DNA of 36,819 nt from Bacteroidia bacterium (GTDB taxonomy: Bacteria > Bacteroidota > Bacteroidia > UKL13-3). The first letter of the stretch is position 1; each line of letters starts with the position of its first letter. The stretch is from NCBI GenBank assembly GCA_044369215.1, contig JBIPMI010000001.1, forward strand, positions 1 to 36,819. The letters are read 5' to 3'. Position numbers and translations under genes: made by a program. The notes below the pieces were generated by a model, which ran no database searches, was not told the DNA's origin, and saw only the letters and a list, made by a program, of their open reading frames with translations. Below, piece by piece: positions 27,420 to 34,303 of this stretch.

Positions 27420-28781
27420 ATGAAAAAATTATGTATCGCTTTCATTGCAATTACCTCGGCATTGCAAGGTGTTTCGCAAACAAACCCTGTCATTACATCT
27501 TGGTTGAGAAACACCACTGGTATTAAAGGTCGACATTATATTAAGAATAATTCAACTGCAATAGTTGATGCAGATTCTGCTAATGTAAAAACTATTTTGT
27601 ATTCGGCAAATTCGGTTTACATTAGAGCAAACGGTGTACCTTCTTATGTAACAGGTCCCTTTCAGGATGGTAATCCTTCACTAACTACAAGTCAAAACGC
27701 AATATTTAAATTCCCATTGAATCCAGTTAAGAATACAGGAACACTTATTGCTACTTCAGGTGGAAATATCGGTTTATTTATAAATGGTGTTGCTTTGTTT
27801 GATTACAGAGATGGTGTTTCATGGAAAAATTCAACCGGAACTATTGCAGGTGGTCCAATTGGTGGAATGGGTGATCGCGTTTGGAACCGTGATGCCATCG
27901 TTGCTGAAAGAGCAGGTTTCGATTGTGCCAAGGGACATCCTGCCATGGGTAATTATCACCATCACCAAAACCCAAGTGCATTTAAACTTGATTTAAATGT
28001 AATATCAACTGTTTGTAATTTATATGATGCTGATGGTTTATATGTAATCGATTCAACAAATCATTCTCCTTTAATTGGTTTTGCTTATGATGGATTTCCA
28101 ATTTATGGGGCTTATGCTTTCAAAAATGTTGATGGCACAGGAGGAATTGTTAGAATGAAATCGAGTTATTCATTAAGAAATATTATTGCAAGAACGCATT
28201 ATGCAAATGGTAATGATGTTACAGATGGACCAGCAATTAGTACAACTTATCCATTAGGTTATTTCAGAGAAGATTATCAATACAATGAAACATCTACTGC
28301 AACTCCAGATTATTTAGATGAACACAATGGACGTTTTTGCATCACTCCTGAGTATCCAAATGGAATCTATTGTTATTATGCAACAGTTGATGCCAATTGG
28401 AACTCCAGTTATCCTTATGCTGTTGGGCCTAATTATTATGGTGTAAAAACTGCCGCTAAGGTTAATTCAATCACAGAGGTAGTGAGTATTTATACTGGCT
28501 CTGCAACTGGATTAGAATTAGTAAATTCAGATAAACTTGATATTTCAATTTTTCCAAATCCTTCAAGTGAAATAATTGCCATACAACAAAGTGGATTGGT
28601 GTTAAAAGATTTAAAAGTTGAATTGTATGATATGAGTGGTAAATTAATTCAAACAGGACAATTATACCAAGGTTCAACCATTTCCTATTTTGATGTAAGC
28701 CAATTGCAATCCGGTGAATATTTGGTTAGGGTTTCAGATGGAAATCAAATCAAAACCAATAAAATTATTTTATCCCATTAA
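27420..28781 (+). CDS. YHYH-domain protein with type-A T9SS C-terminal sorting domain
   Basis: 453-aa ORF with a signal peptide. YHYH-domain motifs: GHPAMGNYHHHQNP, GFAYDGFPIYG, DEHNGRF, PNGIYCYYAT. The C-terminal ~80 aa (ISIFPNPSSEIIAI...VELYDMSGKLI...LQSGEYLVRV) match the Por/T9SS CTD pattern. Confidence 0.85.
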   Translation: MKKLCIAFIAITSALQGVSQTNPVITSWLRNTTGIKGRHYIKNNSTAIVDADSANVKTILYSANSVYIRANGVPSYVTGPFQDGNPSLTTSQNAIFKFPLNPVKNTGTLIATSGGNIGLFINGVALFDYRDGVSWKNSTGTIAGGPIGGMGDRVWNRDAIVAERAGFDCAKGHPAMGNYHHHQNPSAFKLDLNVISTVCNLYDADGLYVIDSTNHSPLIGFAYDGFPIYGAYAFKNVDGTGGIVRMKSSYSLRNIIARTHYANGNDVTDGPAISTTYPLGYFREDYQYNETSTATPDYLDEHNGRFCITPEYPNGIYCYYATVDANWNSSYPYAVGPNYYGVKTAAKVNSITEVVSIYTGSATGLELVNSDKLDISIFPNPSSEIIAIQQSGLVLKDLKVELYDMSGKLIQTGQLYQGSTISYFDVSQLQSGEYLVRVSDGNQIKTNKIILSH

Positions 28782-28838: not shown

Positions 28839-28854
28839 CATTATTCCCCAATTG

Positions 28855-28952
28855 AAATCATAGGAAAAATTATATAAATCAAGGTCCATAAACTTCTTTT
28901 CATATAGAGAAGCAACTTTATTCCAGGTTTCAAATGTTTCTTGGAATGGGTC
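28855..28952 (-). pseudogene. Possible N-terminal remnant of a class I SAM-dependent methyltransferase gene
   Basis: My minus-strand translation reads DPFQETFETWNKVASLYEKKFMDLDLYNFSYDF. This resembles the N-terminus I recall for a Bacteroidota methyltransferase family (..W..A..Y..KFMDLDLYN.(S/T)YD.F). There is no start codon and no SAM-binding motif after it, and similarity ends where the GC-rich hairpin begins. Confidence 0.3.
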
Positions 28953-29102
28953 TATTATTGCAAGATGATTTAAAAATTCAACTACTAGAATATATAAATT
29001 TTAATCTAGAATTTAGTGATCATTTATATTTGTAGAGCTTGAAATGGTTTGGAAGTAATTAAACCGGAATTGCTGATAGGATTATAGCGAAATGACTTAT
29101 AG

Positions 29103-29903
29103 CTAATTCCTTTCTAGCTTCTTTCCATTTTTGTGACATGAAACACAATCGTTGATTTGATTAATGCCTTCTTCATTATGTTCCCTTATGATTTCATTTT
29201 TCGAATGTTCATGGCAACCAAAACAGGTGTAAGAAGTGTAATTATTTTTTGTATGGCAAGTGCTGCATTTGGTTTGATGATTTTTGTCGAGTTCAAAATA
29301 TGAATCATGTGCAAATGTAGCAGGACTCCAAGTATTGGTTTGGTGGCATTTTTCACAACTTAATTTGGTTTGATCATGTAGCTTGTCTTTGGGTTTTTGG
29401 TGGCAGCTTAAACAGTTTGTTTCTGCTATCAGCTCTTCGTGGTTAAACGATGCTGATGAAGCCCATTTTGAAGTTTGGTGACATTCAACACAACGTTTAC
29501 TTACAAATTTGTGTAATTGGTTATTTGGTTTTTTATGACATTCATTACATTCAATCAATGTTGTTTTAAGAAGTATTTCATGTTTAAAAATAGGTTTCTT
29601 GTATTCTTGATAAATGCCTTGGTGTTGAGTATGGCATTCTACACAATTTTGATTTAAAATCTTTTCATGAAATAGAGTTTTGTTAACCTTGTTGATGCTG
29701 TCTTTGCCTATGTTTATTGGGTTATGACAAGCTATACACTTTTCATTACTGACCCCACTAAATGCAGTATGACAAACAAAACAATCATTGCTTAATTTTT
29801 GATGTCCTTTTGCTAATACGCCCGGATTAATCATTAAGTAGGGTGATTTTATTAGCAATAAAACAAACAAACCTATTCCTATAAAAACTAAAAAGCTTTT
29901 CAT
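29103..29903 (-). CDS. Membrane-anchored decahaem c-type cytochrome
   Basis: 266-aa ORF with an N-terminal hydrophobic anchor/signal MKSFLVFIGIGLFVLLLI. Ten CXXCH motifs: CFVCH, CIACH, CVECH, CNECH, CVECH, CLSCH, CEKCH, CSTCH, CFGCH, CVSCH. There are 11 further His residues. The start overlaps the upstream stop (ATGA at 29900-29903). Confidence 0.9.
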   Translation of the reverse strand: MKSFLVFIGIGLFVLLLIKSPYLMINPGVLAKGHQKLSNDCFVCHTAFSGVSNEKCIACHNPINIGKDSINKVNKTLFHEKILNQNCVECHTQHQGIYQEYKKPIFKHEILLKTTLIECNECHKKPNNQLHKFVSKRCVECHQTSKWASSASFNHEELIAETNCLSCHQKPKDKLHDQTKLSCEKCHQTNTWSPATFAHDSYFELDKNHQTKCSTCHTKNNYTSYTCFGCHEHSKNEIIREHNEEGINQINDCVSCHKNGKKLERN

Positions 29904-30472
29904 GAACTAAAAATCAAGATACTGATTAAATGTAATAGGCTTAGTATTCCTAAAGTATACGCTATGGGTAAATGAATCATTCTCCATTTTTTTAAACCTT
30001 TTACAACAATGGAATCAAAAGATAAATTCTTTTCTATTTCTGATTCGCTCATACCGCTTGATACAAGTTCTTTTCTGTTCGATAGTAAATCAAGATTGGC
30101 CATTTTTAATATAAACTTTCCTACTAAACCACTTGCCACATTTATAAGTAAACTCAATATGGCCAGCCAAGGTAAAATGGCATTAAAATGTATTCCTGCA
30201 TGCACCAGTATTAATATTGAGCCAATAAAAGCAAGGGTTTCATGTATTTTTAGTAGTTGAGGTGAAGAACCTATGTGAATACTCTTGTGTTTGTTTAAAG
30301 AATAAATAAAAGAGAAAAGAATAAACACTGTTCCAATTGGACCCAGATATCTACCAATATAAAACAGATTTAAATAATGAAGCAGATAATCTAAACCTAT
30401 ACTTATAAAAATTAAACATGAATACAAGAAAACAAATGGGATGATTTGTTTAATGAATATGGGAACTTTCAT
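29900..30472 (-). CDS. Polytopic membrane protein with paired transmembrane histidines (putative di-haem b carrier)
   Basis: 190-aa ORF with about 5 hydrophobic helices. Two His pairs, each separated by 13 residues, lie within hydrophobic segments: HETLAFIGSILILVH and HLPIAYTLGILSLLH. It is translationally coupled to the cytochrome c gene. The haem-binding role is inference. Confidence 0.7.
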   Translation of the reverse strand: MKVPIFIKQIIPFVFLYSCLIFISIGLDYLLHYLNLFYIGRYLGPIGTVFILFSFIYSLNKHKSIHIGSSPQLLKIHETLAFIGSILILVHAGIHFNAILPWLAILSLLINVASGLVGKFILKMANLDLLSNRKELVSSGMSESEIEKNLSFDSIVVKGLKKWRMIHLPIAYTLGILSLLHLISILIFSS

Positions 30473-30480
30473 TAGAAGTT

Positions 30481-30975
30481 TTAATCAATATCACCATCCC
30501 TTTTAACATCCATTTGTACCGGAGTTAAATTAGTTGTAGGGTTCAATTCAGTATGCCTGATTTGTCCACCAAGGTAAGCTGTTCTAGAAACCAATATAAA
30601 GCTGATACCCGATAATAATAGTATAACTATATTTAGGGGTCTAATTAGTGGCGATTTATTCCATGCAAAAAACAAAGCCAATAATGAAAGTACACCAAGA
30701 CTTATCAAAGAAATAAGCGCAAATAAGGCAAATTCTTCATTTGCTTCGATATTAGATTTAATAATTCCTTGAATGTTTTCAACTGTTTCTTCAGCTGCTT
30801 CACCGGTTATATAGGCAATTCCTGCTCCAATGCCAGAAAGTATTAGAATATAATAACCTGCAATATTGGTTTGAGTACTTTTGACCAAGAATCCATGAAG
30901 AAGAACGAGTCCGCCAAACATAGAACCAAATAGAGGTAAATGTGTAATAAATAAATGTATATGTGTTTGGTTCAT
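30481..30975 (-). CDS. 4-TM membrane protein (DUF2231-like by recollection)
   Basis: 164-aa ORF with MNQTHIHLFITHLPLFG, the acidic loop TGEAAEETVENIQG..EANEEFA, and the C-terminal LGGQIRHTEL. It is the first gene of the three-gene operon (8-nt gap to the next ORF). Confidence 0.75.
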   Translation of the reverse strand: MNQTHIHLFITHLPLFGSMFGGLVLLHGFLVKSTQTNIAGYYILILSGIGAGIAYITGEAAEETVENIQGIIKSNIEANEEFALFALISLISLGVLSLLALFFAWNKSPLIRPLNIVILLLSGISFILVSRTAYLGGQIRHTELNPTTNLTPVQMDVKRDGDID

Positions 30976-31170
30976 GGGGTCTTTTATTGTACAATACCAT
31001 TGAAGCTTTTTAAGTAAAAGTCAAAATTTTGTATTGCTTGGTGAGTTAATAAGAATTGGCAGGCAACTTAGCTGCTTACTACAATTTCTTTACTACATAA
31101 TTTTTATAAAAGCTTATAGAATTCACACATTTTATAACAAAGTCAATGTTTTTGAGTGTGGCCAAATTTG

Positions 31171-31200
31171 GTAGTAGCAAACTATTATGTTTGCTACTAC
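31171..31200. other. Isolated perfect 12-bp stem-loop in non-coding DNA
   Basis: gtagtagcaaac (31171-31182), loop tattat, gtttgctactac (31189-31200). It has no flanking T-run and is not adjacent to a gene end. Confidence 0.6.
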
Positions 31201-31404
31201 AGAATCATAAATAATTGCTGTTGATTTTGCATTTATGTATTTGATTTATGAAATCACCAATTGGGCTTTTTTTATTTATATTGTATTCTTACGCCACTTT
31301 CTCATTAAACAAATATTCCTGGAATTCTACAAATGCCCTGCTGATATTACTTGCAATCACATGTGTTGTTCATAACCGGCTGCACTATCGTAAGTAGAGT
31401 CGGC

Positions 31405-31535
31405 TCCTCCTAGCTCTGAAAGAGCGATATACCACTAGGATAGGGCATCGCCCTATCCTTATTAAACCGACAATGCTCCCATGCCCTGAAAGGACGTCAT
31501 ACCATTCCATAAGGCGCAGCGCCATCACCTAATCC
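31405..31535 (+). repeat. Two REP-like two-hairpin units (plus orientation) at the 3' side of the RAYT gene
   Basis: Unit D1: small hairpin gctct-gaa-agagc (31413-31425) plus a 10-bp palindrome aggatagggc-atc-gccctatcct (31437-31459). Unit D2 (31476-31535) is a degenerate copy (atgccctgaaaggacgtcatacc...ggcgcagcgccatcacct) overlapping the last codons of the transposase. Confidence 0.8.
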
Positions 31536-31981
31536 CAAACATACCTCTCGTCGCATTCTACTTGATACTTCTTTAAAAAAGCACGGTATTCATCTTGAAA
31601 AGTTTTCTTATTATGGTGTTCATGTTGATTAGCTATATAGGCTTTAACAGTATCAACTTCTCTTGGATTAACAGAAAATGCTCCATATCCATCTTGCCAA
31701 TAGAAGTTTTGATAAGCTGGTCCTTTTGTTTTTATCCATTTTGATGAATGTGATTTTAGTACTTCCATCAACTTCATGAGTGGTATCTTTTTTGATAACA
31801 TACATAGTACATGGATATGGTCGGTATAGCCGCCTACTTTTATTACTGTGCATTCGAGTCTATTACAGATGCCTCCTAGGTAGGCATGAAGTTCAGCTTC
31901 CACAGATTCGTCTATTAGTGGTTGACGATATTTCGTGCTGAACACGATGTGCATGTAGTTTTTTACTAGCGATTGTCCCAT
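31529..31981 (-). CDS. IS200-like HUH/Y1 tyrosine transposase, REP-associated (RAYT-like)
   Basis: MGQSLVKNYMHIVFSTKYRQPLI.., HUH motif in YTDHIHVLC, and catalytic Tyr context VKAYIANQHEHH. I place the start at ATG 31981, because the track's 32008 start would read into a REP hairpin. There is no tnpB partner, and REP-like palindromes flank both sides. Confidence 0.88.
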   Translation of the reverse strand: MGQSLVKNYMHIVFSTKYRQPLIDESVEAELHAYLGGICNRLECTVIKVGGYTDHIHVLCMLSKKIPLMKLMEVLKSHSSKWIKTKGPAYQNFYWQDGYGAFSVNPREVDTVKAYIANQHEHHNKKTFQDEYRAFLKKYQVECDERYVWD

Positions 31982-31989
31982 AGTTTTAT

Positions 31990-32105
31990 GTCGATGGGCT
32001 ACACCCATCGTTGGTATATGTTGCCCCTTCTGGGCTGGTGTTCGTCTGTTCCAATTCGCGACGGGCTATGCCCATCGCTAGTGTATTACGCCCTTTCAGG
32101 GCTAT
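31990..32105 (-). repeat. Two REP-like units in minus orientation immediately 5' of the RAYT gene
   Basis: Reverse complements read ccagcccagaaggggcaacatataccaacgatgggtgtagcccatcga (31991-32038) and gaatagccctgaaagggcgtaatacactagcgatgggcatagcccgtcgcgaa (32055-32105). They share the architecture of the plus-strand units (small gccc..gggc hairpin, ata-acc spacer, 7-9 bp palindrome). The palindrome arms differ by compensating changes. Confidence 0.75.
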
Positions 32106-32149
32106 TCGATCGACTGGATTCGTTAACGATAATATCAATATGAATACAT

Positions 32150-32274
32150 CCCCCTAGCCCTGAAGGGGCGGTATAACCTTAGGATAGGGTATCGCCCTAT
32201 CCTAATTATCGTGTCATTTTCTCCCTAGCCCTGAATGGGCGGCATATCCCTAGGATAGGGTAACGCCCTATCCT
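32150..32274 (+). repeat. Two tandem ~71-bp REP-like units (plus orientation)
   Basis: cctagccctgaaggggcggtataaccttaggatagggtatcgccctatcct (palindrome 32181-32203) and cctagccctgaatgggcggcatatccctaggatagggtaacgccctatcct (palindrome 32252-32274). They are nearly identical to each other and to unit D1. Confidence 0.85.
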
Positions 32275-32280
32275 GAATAG

Positions 32281-32380
32281 ATATGGCATCGCTATATCCT
32301 AAATAAGGTGGCATCGCCCGAGCCCAAATAACATGTCACCGCCTTATCTCAAATGAACATGGCATCGCCTCAACCCAATT
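32281..32380 (+). repeat. Four tandem ~25-bp degenerate copies of the palindrome right half-site
   Basis: atggcatcgctatatcctaaata / ggtggcatcgcccgagcccaaata / acatgtcaccgccttatctcaaatga / acatggcatcgcctcaacccaatt. Each resembles ..ggcatcgccctatcct-a-ta of the full units but lacks the left arm. Confidence 0.65.
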
Positions 32381-32431
32381 GTGATGCTGACCGTTTTTCT
32401 TGGTGCTAAATTAATTGAATGCAATTTTTGA

Positions 32432-32813
32432 TTGTAGGTGCATTTGTACTAAAACACCATCTGGACCACGGATTAAGCTGATTTTTTTGATTACAATCAT
32501 TTCGTAATCAAGCTTTAATAAGATAGTAGTGTTTCTTTTGAATTCTTATTTTGTCATGGAAAATTTCCTTGTTGTATTTCAATATAACTACTAAAAACAC
32601 CCTCATTTAAGGAATTCCTAAATTCTTTAACTCGCAAGAATATCCGTTTATTCCTTTAATCAGCTTAATCACTGTCCATACTTTTGCCACGGATTAACCT
32701 GATTATTATGATTTTTTTGATTCAATTAATTTTAATTAGCTTAATCACAATTCATACTTTTGACTTTTAAATTTATTGCTTGTAGCTGCTCAATTGGTAC
32801 TCAAAACATCCTC
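32432..32813 (+). repeat. Second family of short imperfect dispersed repeats in a gene-free tract
   Basis: ttgtaggtgcatttgtactaaaacaccatc (32432-32461) vs ttgtagctgctcaattggtactcaaaacatcctc (32780-32813) vs aactactaaaaacaccctc (32586-32604). ccacggattaagctgatt...gatttttttgatt (32466-32492) vs ccacggattaacctgatt...gatttttttgatt (32687-32722). agcttaatcactgtccatacttttgcc (32662-32688) vs agcttaatcacaattcatacttttgac (32738-32764). Confidence 0.55.
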
Positions 32814-33002
32814 TTCTTGGGATTTCGACAAACTAAAATACGTCAACTCAGATTTAGGGAATTTCATTATCAAAATTAATCATATTCTCAGGTTGAATAA
32901 AGATTCTACTTCTTTTAAACTCCTAGTAAGCTAGTGACCGAATGAATAATAAGGGCAAATTGAACATCCGTAACGAGCCTGTCAACATGATATAGAAAAG
33001 AG

Positions 33003-33692
33003 TTATTTAGAAGGGCGAGTAGGTCGTGAGGTAAATAATATTTTGCTAGTAGAGTCAACAATAGAAAAGCCATAGTCGTGTTTATAATTTAAATTGGCTA
33101 AAGGAATCGCTTTGTTTATCTCTGCATAATTGCTCCAATAGATATCAATTCCATTTTTTTTCTTCTCCTTTATTTCATTCTCAAAATCACGTATGTGATT
33201 CGCAAGTGAATCAATCATGACAAAACCTACTCGAATCTTATCAGAATTACTGTTTCCGGCGGTTCTTAAGTCATTTATCATGGTATGAAAAACAATTTTA
33301 CCATGAGGAAGAAATATCATCTTATCCCTTGAATTCTTGTCGCAACAAAAACCGAATGTATTGATACTCGAAGGTTCAAATAGAAATTGCATGAAAAATG
33401 AGGTATACATAAAAACTAAATCTAATGTATCATTCGATTGGTTATTGATGCCAATGTCTATAAACAGAATTGGAATTGAATCTCTTTGTTCCTGAATAAG
33501 TTGATTGCTACTAGGCTCATATCGTCCACTGTGATTATTTTCGTATCCAGCACCTACTATATTCAATGAAACAGAGATTGGATGTTGATGAAGTGAGTCT
33601 TTAGCCTTTAGGGTATGAAGGTTCCTAGGACCTGGATTTTCGCCGCATGAAACAATTAAAGCTGTAGAAATAATAAATATGATATTTTTCAA
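33003..33692 (-). CDS. Hypothetical lipoprotein
   Basis: 229-aa ORF. The TTG start gives MKNIIFIISTALIVSCGEN, a lipobox-like signal with Cys at position 16. I recognise no domain. Confidence 0.65.
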   Translation of the reverse strand: MKNIIFIISTALIVSCGENPGPRNLHTLKAKDSLHQHPISVSLNIVGAGYENNHSGRYEPSSNQLIQEQRDSIPILFIDIGINNQSNDTLDLVFMYTSFFMQFLFEPSSINTFGFCCDKNSRDKMIFLPHGKIVFHTMINDLRTAGNSNSDKIRVGFVMIDSLANHIRDFENEIKEKKKNGIDIYWSNYAEINKAIPLANLNYKHDYGFSIVDSTSKILFTSRPTRPSK

Positions 33693-33802
33693 ATGGAAAA
33701 GATTAAAACTTTTAAAACAAAGCGATAAGGATTTGAGGGATATTTTGCTCCTTTATATTTTGCTTTTCTTTAGCTTAGCTTATAATATCATTTAAGAATA
33801 AA

Positions 33803-34303
33803 TCAATCTTTAATCAATAAATTATTGATCATGAATCTTATCAAATTTAGTTCTTCTTGTTCTATGTTCGAATCTTTATTAATTGAAATTGTTACTAATC
33901 TTTGTTTGTCTACTATGCCGTACCAAACCCAATTTATTTGTTTTACGGTGAATGTTGACTCTACTAAAACATCAAATTTTGTTTTATAACTTTTCCAATC
34001 TTCTTTCTTTAGATCATTCTTAAAATAGCTTTTTACAAAATCATTTAACTGTGTAATTAATTTATCATCGTTCATTCCTTTTCCAATTCCGTATGCACTA
34101 ATTGTAATGGTTATTTTTGATGTGGAATCATAAATTGTAACTATGCCATCTTCATCTTCTTTTAAAGAAAAATCTTTTGGATAATAGATGTCGTAAGCCT
34201 TTGATTTTGGTACAAATGAGGTCATTTCTTTTTTGTCTTCATGCTGACCAAATGCGTTTATACTGAAAATAAACGAAAGTATAAATAGGATTCTGTAAGT
34301 CAT
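33803..34303 (-). CDS. Hypothetical secreted protein
   Basis: 166-aa ORF with signal peptide MTYRILFILSFIFSINAFGQ. I recognise no domain. Confidence 0.65.
   Translation of the reverse strand: MTYRILFILSFIFSINAFGQHEDKKEMTSFVPKSKAYDIYYPKDFSLKEDEDGIVTIYDSTSKITITISAYGIGKGMNDDKLITQLNDFVKSYFKNDLKKEDWKSYKTKFDVLVESTFTVKQINWVWYGIVDKQRLVTISINKDSNIEQEELNLIRFMINNLLIKD

Follow-up and report, generated by a model that had tools for sequence, protein, structure and literature searches.

The stretch of DNA analysed here (the window) comprises 36,819 nucleotides (nt) of contig JBIPMI010000001.1 from the Bacteroidia bacterium assembly GCA_044369215.1 (GTDB lineage UKL13-3), and carries on its minus strand a compact module of three genes, here termed A, B, and C, that encode two polytopic membrane proteins and a multihaem cytochrome c (Table 1). 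An earlier reading of the letters alone (the original prediction) had described three co-directional open reading frames (ORFs) packed like an operon, with an 8-nt gap and an ATGA stop/start overlap, and our inspection found each of these features in place, with A and B separated by positions 30473-30480 and all three ORFs intact. The ATGA overlap implies translational coupling of B and C, and a 4-nt or 1-nt overlap of these two genes recurs in many related loci (cited below by our handles, L or P followed by a number). The arrangement supports an operon-like unit in the window. Hydropathy profiles and the secondary structure of AlphaFold models agreed on four transmembrane (TM) helices in A, five in B, and a single N-terminal anchor helix in C, as had been predicted, and the short motifs that had been singled out in A (HIHLFITHLP, GEAAEETVEN, and GGQIRHTEL) were likewise present.

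Table 1. Positions of the module's genes and associated features in the window (L010 is a related contig).
Feature	Position	Strand	Description	Basis
Gene A	30481..30975	(-)	164-aa, 4-TM membrane protein, probable divergent DUF2231 member	ORF list and sequence
Gene B	29900..30472	(-)	190-aa, 5-TM protein, putative di-haem cytochrome b	ORF list and sequence
Gene C	29103..29903	(-)	266-aa decahaem c-type cytochrome, c3/c7 superfamily	ORF list and sequence
ATGA stop/start overlap of B and C	29900..29903	(-)		Sequence
Intergenic region 5' of gene A	30976..31141	(-)	Candidate operon promoter; kept in L010, which is without B-C	
B-C segment	28960..30481		Absent without remnant from L010; boundary exactly at the stop codon of gene A	blastn, tblastn

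Comparison across genomes revealed that the conserved unit is the B-C pair and not the trio. A survey with one genome per GTDB species placed a B homologue in at least 568 species, and the best 80 of these loci were analysed. B is present in 80/80, and C lies directly downstream in all 77 loci with enough sequence beyond B, the other three being contig ends; the same adjacency also holds in metagenome contigs. Homologues of B number more than 1,100, and an exhaustive profile search yielded 1,594 clusters at 50% identity and E<=1e-3. Among the hosts, uncultured Saprospiraceae, Chitinophagaceae, Flavobacteriales, and further Bacteroidota predominate, alongside Ignavibacteria and some Proteobacteria, and our literature search on DUF2231 and on the B-C pair in Bacteroidota found no description. 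Gene A stands directly upstream of B (within 250 nt) in only 15 of the 80 loci, a count that rises to 21 when any position within the locus is allowed, and is an accessory partner outside the invariant core. The unit proposed for the window is therefore sound as an operon-like arrangement here, but does not extend as a trio to the family. In four metagenome-assembled genomes (MAGs) of Flavobacteriales (L039, L042, L053, and L063), a second, longer B-like gene (284-309 residues, E ~1e-8 to B) was seen ~2-5 kb downstream of B-C, followed in L039 and L042 by a 540-residue cytochrome with 20 CXXCH motifs, and cytochromes with 19-25 haems lie nearby in L073 and L081; a B-type membrane subunit may thus also be paired with other, longer haem wires.

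The B protein carries the two His-pair segments on which the original prediction had relied, namely HETLAFIGSILILVH, which provides H77 and H91 on TM3, and HLPIAYTLGILSLLH, which provides H167 and H181 on TM5, with TM4 between them. Conservation of these residues, which had been proposed as a check, was examined in an alignment of 30 homologues from two phyla (Bacteroidota and Betaproteobacteria, including an Azonexus homologue at 41% identity), where H32, H77, H91, H95, H167, and H181 are all invariant; in a 36-sequence set, H181 is kept in at least 90% and the other five remain invariant. This pattern supports the four TM histidines behaving as haem ligands, and B would accordingly be expected to bind haem b. 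By the positive-inside rule, the RKRK-rich loop between TM2 and TM3 and the long hairpin of residues 122-169 are cytoplasmic. Each His pair would then have one member close to the cytoplasmic face (H77 and H167) and one close to the periplasmic face (H91 and H181), as expected if two haems are stacked one above the other through the membrane; the conserved H32 and H95 are predicted to lie at the periplasmic surface. The AlphaFold model of B, of fair quality (predicted local distance difference test score, pLDDT, of 79.8), consists of five long helices.

Nox/FRD proteins have His pairs 13 residues apart on two parallel helices, and B shares the layout of the ferric-reductase domain family, in which each of two parallel TM helices carries one His pair with a spacing of 12-13 residues. 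The kinship to the Nox/MsrQ type that had been suggested for B was borne out in architecture but not in family membership: no Ferric_reduct (PF01794) match was found for B at E<=1 or among the 30 homologues at E<=0.1, and no PepSY_TM match for B at E<=1 in Pfam. What similarity there is points, below threshold, to DUF4405 and cytochrome b561. B matched DUF4405 (PF14358) at 17.1 bits against a gathering score of 26.7 (E=0.0083), with only residues 64-96 (TM3) aligned, and 8 of the 30 homologues did so at E<0.1 (best 1.3e-4). Ni_hydr_CYTB (PF01292, prokaryotic cytochrome b561) had no match in the window protein and was touched by one of the 30 homologues and by three of 10 more distant relatives, at E-values of 5e-5 to 6.5e-4 and all under 30.1 bits. 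B had no match in NCBIfam either, and neither Pfam nor NCBIfam holds a model of it.

The C protein contains exactly 10 CXXCH motifs, which together use all 20 of its Cys residues, and 21 His residues, of which 10 are proximal ligands and 11 are others. Its only Met residues are M1 and M24, leaving His alone available as distal ligand. These counts agree with the original prediction of bis-His ligation for every haem, the distal His residues are conserved, and C is supported as an all-bis-His multihaem protein, as predicted from its sequence. Composition-preserving shuffles of C gave three or more CXXCH motifs in only 3 of 20,000 cases, and C exceeded the Pfam gathering scores of Cytochrom_CIII (53.4 against 22.9 bits), Cytochrom_c3_2 (47 against 25), and Cytochrome_C7 (43.9 against 24.8); the motif set is therefore not a product of chance. 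In keeping with the c3/c7 superfamily, C has densely packed CXXCH sites with His as sixth ligands, at which haem attachment is predicted. The number of CXXCH motifs was 10 in 56 loci, 12 in 14, and 8 in four; the proteobacterial forms likewise have 8. Alignment revealed that these variants differ by insertion or deletion of one di-haem unit of ~45 residues, with the remaining CXXCH motifs and distal His conserved. C thus appears to be built of repeated di-haem units, its predicted haem number changing in steps of two (8, 10, and 12). Most C homologues end in a charged, low-complexity C-terminal tail of 30-50 residues that finishes in poly-Asp (…DDDD), a possible binding element for cations or for mineral surfaces. 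This tail is missing from the window protein and from a few homologues (e.g. P0012), which end right after the last CXXCH.

Assignment of the pair to a described system failed at each attempt, in line with the original prediction that the genes belong to no named complex. Against NCBIfam, C reached 26.2 bits for the DmsE/MtrA decahaem family (TIGR03508, cut-off 192.2), 18.8 bits for NrfH/NapC/CymA (TIGR03153, cut-off 134.2, with only the last 35 residues aligned), and 12.8 bits for NrfB (cut-off 167), and also fell far under the cut-offs of HmcA and TmcA; among PDB sequences, its only relative was a tetrahaem cytochrome c3 (E=0.24). Like C, the proteins of the NrfH/CymA/NapC and MtrA/DmsE groups are anchored or periplasmic multihaem cytochromes c that relay electrons from the inner membrane. 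However, NrfH and CymA oxidise quinol themselves and have no b-haem partner, and MtrA sits in an outer-membrane porin of a kind that does not recur at B-C loci.

Closer parallels were found for B. DUF4405 proteins and the ferrosome protein FezC (Light laboratory, mSystems 2024, PMC11334425) are, like B, small polytopic membrane proteins; DUF4405 is described with four central, highly conserved TM histidines, a feature that B shares, and haem b binding by an Oscillospiraceae DUF4405 protein was demonstrated experimentally by a pyridine haemochrome assay (PMC11334425). For the DUF4405/FezC proteins, iron-linked transmembrane electron transfer to extracytosolic carriers has been proposed, and DUF4405 is also the best, though weak, Pfam match of B. 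Yet DUF4405 proteins have six TM helices, ApbE-flavinylated partners, and no c-type cytochromes, in contrast to the five helices and c-type partner of B. The MsrQ-like and PepSY-like (FoxB-type) systems, for which periplasmic iron reduction has been proposed, are fused or linked to NAD_binding_1 domains and co-localise with VIT1 (10.1101/2021.01.07.425746). They have in common with B the bis-His di-haem core, which in B is predicted, and the links to NAD_binding_1 and VIT1 described below, but their carrier is a flavinylated protein or MsrP instead of a multihaem c wire, and the reductase partner of B-C, unlike theirs, is encoded as a polypeptide of its own and bears a 2Fe-2S domain in addition.

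Candidate partners emerged from neighbour clustering across 85 loci. In three proteobacterial lineages (Azonexus hydrophilus, L002, and metagenomic L092 and L093), a protein of 414-423 residues is encoded 0-9 nt upstream of B. Both sequences read (L002 and L092) start with an N-terminal TM helix; the L002 protein matched FAD_binding_6, NAD_binding_1, and a C-terminal Fer2 (2Fe-2S) domain, and NAD_binding_1 and Fer2 are on record for the L092 and L093 proteins. A flavin adenine dinucleotide (FAD)/NAD(P)H and 2Fe-2S protein at this position would supply the missing cytoplasmic donor, and argues for a path from NAD(P)H through FAD, 2Fe-2S, two haem b, and n haem c to the periplasm. These proteobacterial B-C operons lie amid metal-homeostasis genes (CDF, RND, ZIP, ZrgA, and CobW), and the Nevskia locus has a VIT1 gene oriented divergently to B.

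In the wider set of neighbourhoods, erythrin-VIT1 (MbfA-like) transporters were found at 16 of the 85 loci, in seven of them on the same strand and within 60 nt, and rubrerythrin-like proteins at 10. The latter carry lipoprotein signal peptides in 8/8 cases inspected, and hence appear to be exported, which is unusual for rubrerythrins; if so, a periplasmic electron donor would be needed. Rubrerythrin genes adjoin A and/or B-C at L012, L019, L023, L027, L068, L075, L078, L087, and L097, and fuller clusters have the order rubrerythrin-A-B-C (L023, L078, and L087) or B-C-VIT1-A-response regulator-histidine kinase-rubrerythrin (L027). The C-terminus of these rubrerythrin-like proteins is atypical, with CPxCG…(H/R)C instead of a full rubredoxin CxxC…CxxC. 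Other recurring neighbours in Bacteroidota are OmpR-type two-component systems, a P2-type ATPase (7 loci), and KatG (4 loci). NCBIfam typing of the two-component systems gave heavy-metal (CopRS/CusRS-type) and PorY families as best matches, all but one below cut-off and one kinase above that of PorY, so that no signal can be named for them. The absence of a catalytic partner, which had been noted from the window, is accurate for the window itself, which is free of molybdopterin, FeS, Rieske, NrfD, and oxidase genes over its whole length, but does not describe the family, given the reductase of the proteobacterial loci and the VIT1, rubrerythrin, KatG, and two-component neighbours in Bacteroidota. 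No outer-membrane porin-cytochrome or terminal reductase recurs in the 85 neighbourhoods, nor do the NrfD-type, FeS, or molybdopterin subunits that would point to alternative complex III (ACIII), NrfBCD, or Hmc/Tmc/Qrc.

The same transporters can be read in the opposite direction. C might take electrons from periplasmic Fe(II) or another reductant, and B might pass them to menaquinone at the cytoplasmic face, in an FdnI-like redox loop that detoxifies Fe(II), for instance Fe(II) exported by a VIT1/MbfA-type transporter, and conserves energy. MbfA-type proteins are described as iron exporters, and several loci have an erythrin-VIT1 (MbfA-like) gene immediately beside the pair; a transmembrane stack of two haems would suit a redox loop, and the acidic poly-Asp tail of many C homologues could bind cations. 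We nevertheless consider inward flow quite improbable. With the NAD(P)H/FAD/2Fe-2S partner of the proteobacterial loci it is thermodynamically implausible, and exported rubrerythrin-like partners need a supply of electrons and not a sink. Moreover, bis-His c3-type haems usually have low potentials, which suit them to donating electrons rather than to taking them from Fe(II).

A more serious alternative is offered by CbcBA of Geobacter, in which a di-haem b membrane protein adjoins a periplasmic multihaem c (10.1101/2021.04.15.440034). CbcBA of G. sulfurreducens, or its fused form CbcL, and B-C have in common a di-haem b-type membrane protein, putative in the case of B, encoded beside a membrane-anchored periplasmic multihaem c, and a further likeness is that conservation is far stronger in the b subunit than in its c partner (10.1101/2021.04.15.440034). 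B-C could then be a menaquinol:periplasm oxidoreductase of the CbcBA/CbcL or CymA kind, with B as quinol oxidase and C as output, feeding respiratory or extracellular electron transfer in dissimilatory metal reduction or another form of anaerobic respiration. Besides the shared architecture (10.1101/2021.04.15.440034), this reading draws on the weak Ni_hydr_CYTB matches of some B relatives, on the Bacteroidota loci, the window included, without a cytoplasmic reductase gene, on those Flavobacteriales loci in which B-C is joined by a further B-like gene and a 20-haem cytochrome, and on the wealth of undescribed multihaem cytochromes in Saprospiraceae and Ignavibacteria (PMC11495043). In detail, however, the two systems part. 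CbcB has four TM helices and three His, with the fourth ligand coming from CbcA, whereas B has five helices and all four His on TM3 and TM5; CbcA has a C-terminal anchor and seven haems, whereas C has an N-terminal anchor and 8, 10, or 12. The CbcBA operon is under sigma-54/BccR regulation and functions in dissimilatory respiration of Fe(III) at low potential, with menaquinol as the electron source, while B-C is accompanied by iron/peroxide homeostasis genes or an NAD(P)H reductase, and its similarity to cytochrome b561 stays below threshold. A reductase abutting B in the proteobacterial operons contradicts quinol oxidation as the family's function, and the gene neighbourhoods lend it no support, the recurring neighbours being of iron/peroxide character and porin-cytochromes and terminal reductases not recurring; a quinol site on the periplasmic side would, moreover, need no two membrane-spanning haems. 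The hosts of B-C, finally, are largely aerobic heterotroph lineages. On balance, we regard a respiratory quinol oxidase as unlikely.

The combination of a di-haem b membrane protein with an extracytoplasmic carrier is thus already known from CbcBA/CbcL, MsrQ, PepSY, and DUF4405 systems, and by profile scores and predicted topology B-C falls outside formal membership of all four. Its own features are the five-TM B with four ligands on TM3 and TM5, the N-anchored c3/c7 wire of 8, 10, or 12 haems, the optional FAD/NAD and 2Fe-2S donor, and the links to DUF2231, exported rubrerythrin, and VIT1.

We propose that B-C is a two-subunit 'bc-type' electron conduit of the inner membrane, as the original prediction had suggested in outline when it linked membrane b haems to periplasmic c haems, which remains the best reading. 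B would hold the two b haems in the stacked arrangement outlined above, one near each face of the membrane, and C, anchored beside it by its N-terminal helix, would extend ten bis-His c haems into the periplasm in a chain whose length would have been tuned in evolution by gain and loss of di-haem units. Electrons would most likely flow outward. Their source in Proteobacteria would be the operon-encoded NAD(P)H/FAD/2Fe-2S reductase, and in the Bacteroidota genome of the window either a reductase encoded elsewhere or menaquinol instead. The acceptors would lie in the periplasm, probably in iron/peroxide handling, as Fe(III) reduction tied to VIT1-type transporters and/or as exported rubrerythrin-like lipoproteins. 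The published logic of the MsrQ-like and PepSY-like systems, in which VIT1 and NAD_binding_1 co-localise, is a precedent for this reading of B-C (10.1101/2021.01.07.425746).

The gene structure, the conservation of the ligands, the obligate linkage of B and C, the partner genes, and the modular haem number are observed here, while haem b binding by B, the direction of flow, and the identity of donor and acceptor in the organism of the window are conjectural. For the whole chain, in which B-C exports electrons from a cytoplasmic reductase or menaquinol to periplasmic iron/peroxide chemistry, we estimate a probability of roughly 60%, and we place higher confidence in the bare transmembrane conduit of di-haem b and multihaem c. 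Several points count against the proposal. The family is known from sequence alone, from which the direction of electron flow cannot be read, and B remains below the Pfam gathering scores of both DUF4405 and cytochrome b561. A Foldseek search of the B model against the PDB gave nothing significant (best E 0.65; cytochrome b561, 4o6y, ranked fifth with a TM-score of 0.30), and a B profile search of PDB sequences gave no match at E<=10. The window and most Bacteroidota loci have no cytoplasmic reductase next to B-C, so that the donor here could be menaquinol, and the iron/peroxide neighbours each occur in only 5-20% of loci, none of them in the window. In the lineage of the window the module is dispensable, being absent from L010 and interrupted within C in L011, and gene A of the window has Asn at position 79, where the family has a nearly invariant His; the last three observations are taken up below.

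Non-respiratory uses of electrons in the periplasm include repair of oxidised proteins, reduction of iron for uptake, and removal of peroxide. To our knowledge, only a handful of systems that supply electrons for such uses are understood in detail, namely DsbD, MsrPQ, FoxB (a siderophore reductase), and flavinylated carriers. The B-C pair occurs in at least 568 species-level genomes and ~1,600 clusters, yet its membrane subunit has neither a Pfam or NCBIfam model nor a solved structural relative. Should the proposed function hold, B would represent a new family of di-haem cytochrome b, joined to a haem 'wire' tuned in two-haem steps. It would also explain how exported rubrerythrin-like lipoproteins are supplied with electrons, and how VIT1-linked iron handling is, in abundant Bacteroidota of freshwater, soil, and wastewater. 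There would also be consequences for metagenome surveys in which multihaem cytochromes are counted as a sign of extracellular respiration, since this very common decahaem protein may instead serve housekeeping redox chemistry. A bolder version, which we offer tentatively and hold to be possible rather than probable, would make B-C the core of an unrecognised Nox-like electron-export system, driven by NAD(P)H or ferredoxin, whose haem wire powers exported rubrerythrin-type peroxidases and Fe(III) reduction. It would then be a periplasmic antioxidant and iron-redox supply line in hundreds of aerobic Bacteroidota, Ignavibacteria, and some Proteobacteria, with DUF2231 as the rubrerythrin's membrane docking or metal site.

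Gene A matched DUF2231 (PF09990) at E=0.0036 and 17.8 bits against a gathering score of 26.4, with positions 4-129 of the 139-position profile covered; 30/30 of its homologues did so at E<0.1 (best 1.3e-6), and several have a precomputed PF09990 match. Alignment identified H7, H12, E59, E62, E63, E66, E80, R140, H141, and E143 as conserved. The His and Glu residues among them are predicted to lie on the periplasmic side of the membrane, and this His/Glu-rich region may be a metal site. Codon 79 of the window gene (30739-30741) encodes Asn in 'IEANEEF', whereas His, in 'IEAHEEF', stands at this position in all three of the close relatives retrieved (87-93% identical) and in almost all of the family; N79 is thus a lineage-specific change at a nearly invariant position that probably binds metal. 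AlphaFold modelled A poorly (pLDDT 64.7), and the Foldseek matches of that model, generic four-helix bundles, were not used. Two remote kinships were considered and rejected, one with VIT1 (one homologue matched at 5.8e-4; hhalign probability 1%) and one between A and B through the common 'HLPI' helix start (hhalign probability 1.5%).

Gene A also occurs without B-C, both in L010 and in Runella. In Runella sp. L097/L098 (4339-8350), a rubrerythrin lipoprotein gene and an A homologue translationally coupled to it through an overlapping start are followed by genes for a Rieske protein, DUF5777, YceI, and a PSCyt1-like cytochrome c, with no B-C. This operon looks like an alternative electron-supply module for the rubrerythrin/DUF2231 pair. 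The arrangement suggests a tie of A to the exported rubrerythrin, with B-C as one among several electron sources that can replace each other. Gene A would accordingly be an optional, periplasm-facing membrane partner that works with the rubrerythrin-like lipoprotein rather than with B-C.

Close relatives of the window's organism differ in their possession of the pair. The MAG contig L010, ~91% identical in DNA, keeps A and the flanking synteny but is without the B-C segment (Table 1), in place of which it has a 480-nt stretch with a 73-residue ORF that we take to resemble a VbhA-type antitoxin. L010 also carries genes for a methyltransferase, a DUF4395 protein, and a sulfatase. Of this stretch, the window has kept no more than a 111-nt 5' fragment of the methyltransferase gene (28849-28959, 91% identity) and is without the ~3 kb that follow in L010, comprising the rest of this gene, the DUF4395 gene, and the sulfatase. 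In L011, a GTDB representative MAG from a pond sample (92% identical), A-B-C is present, but C (1613-2420) has an in-frame stop (…NNYTS*TCFGYH…) and has lost its ninth CXXCH (CFGCH to CFGYH), through either pseudogenisation or assembly error. Intact B and C copies, 95-96% identical to those of the window, occur in other samples (P0001, at 95%, among them). The G+C content of B-C (0.316) equals that of its flanks, and base composition gave no sign of foreign origin. The suggestion that the module is acquired DNA is therefore borne out by its presence or absence between ~91%-identical relatives but not by composition, and the B-C family is native to Bacteroidota; in the lineage of the window the module is a dispensable accessory that is compositionally not foreign.

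These relatives also bear on whether the locus in the window has any current role. It could be a decaying, non-functional remnant, given the absence of B-C from L010, the interrupted C of L011, the N79 of gene A, and the flanking gene fragment and RAYT/REP (REP-associated tyrosine transposase/repetitive extragenic palindromic) insertion. Yet A, B, and C of the window are intact ORFs with all ligand residues preserved, the intact copies persist in other samples, and protein identity is at least as high as DNA identity, as expected under purifying selection. We hold a remnant to be highly improbable, and retain the electron conduit as the preferred reading for the window as well.

The intergenic region 5' of gene A probably contains the operon promoter. 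Positions 30482-31141, which span gene A and this region, are 89% identical to L010 by blastn. A scan for sigma-70 promoters and terminators showed no enrichment and no terminator, the tool being one that does not cover Bacteroidota promoters. The window surroundings are otherwise made up of ordinary Bacteroidota genes, including those for a malic enzyme, an aldehyde dehydrogenase, an M1 peptidase, and an apolipoprotein N-acyltransferase. A secreted YHYH-domain protein with a type IX secretion system (T9SS) sorting domain is encoded at 27420-28781 (+), convergent to the module, and other T9SS-tailed proteins lie just 5' of A or B in several Saprospiraceae loci (L001, L006, and L095, for example); the YHYH gene holds the same place in the relative without B-C, and its link to the module may be coincidental. 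On the other side, a 229-residue lipoprotein-like ORF with no family match occupies 33003-33692. The flanking gene fragment and REP/RAYT locus noted in the original prediction are both real, the former being the methyltransferase fragment described above. The RAYT gene (Y1_Tnp, 1.2e-28) lies at 31529-32008 and has REP-like palindromes on its flanks (TAGGATAGGGCATCGCCCTATCCT and related copies, at 31405-31464, 32149-32208, and 32220-32279). The 2.6-kb RAYT/REP stretch as a whole (31142-33750) is missing from L010 and hence was inserted recently, separating gene A from what was once the next ORF upstream, of 166 residues at 33803-34303.

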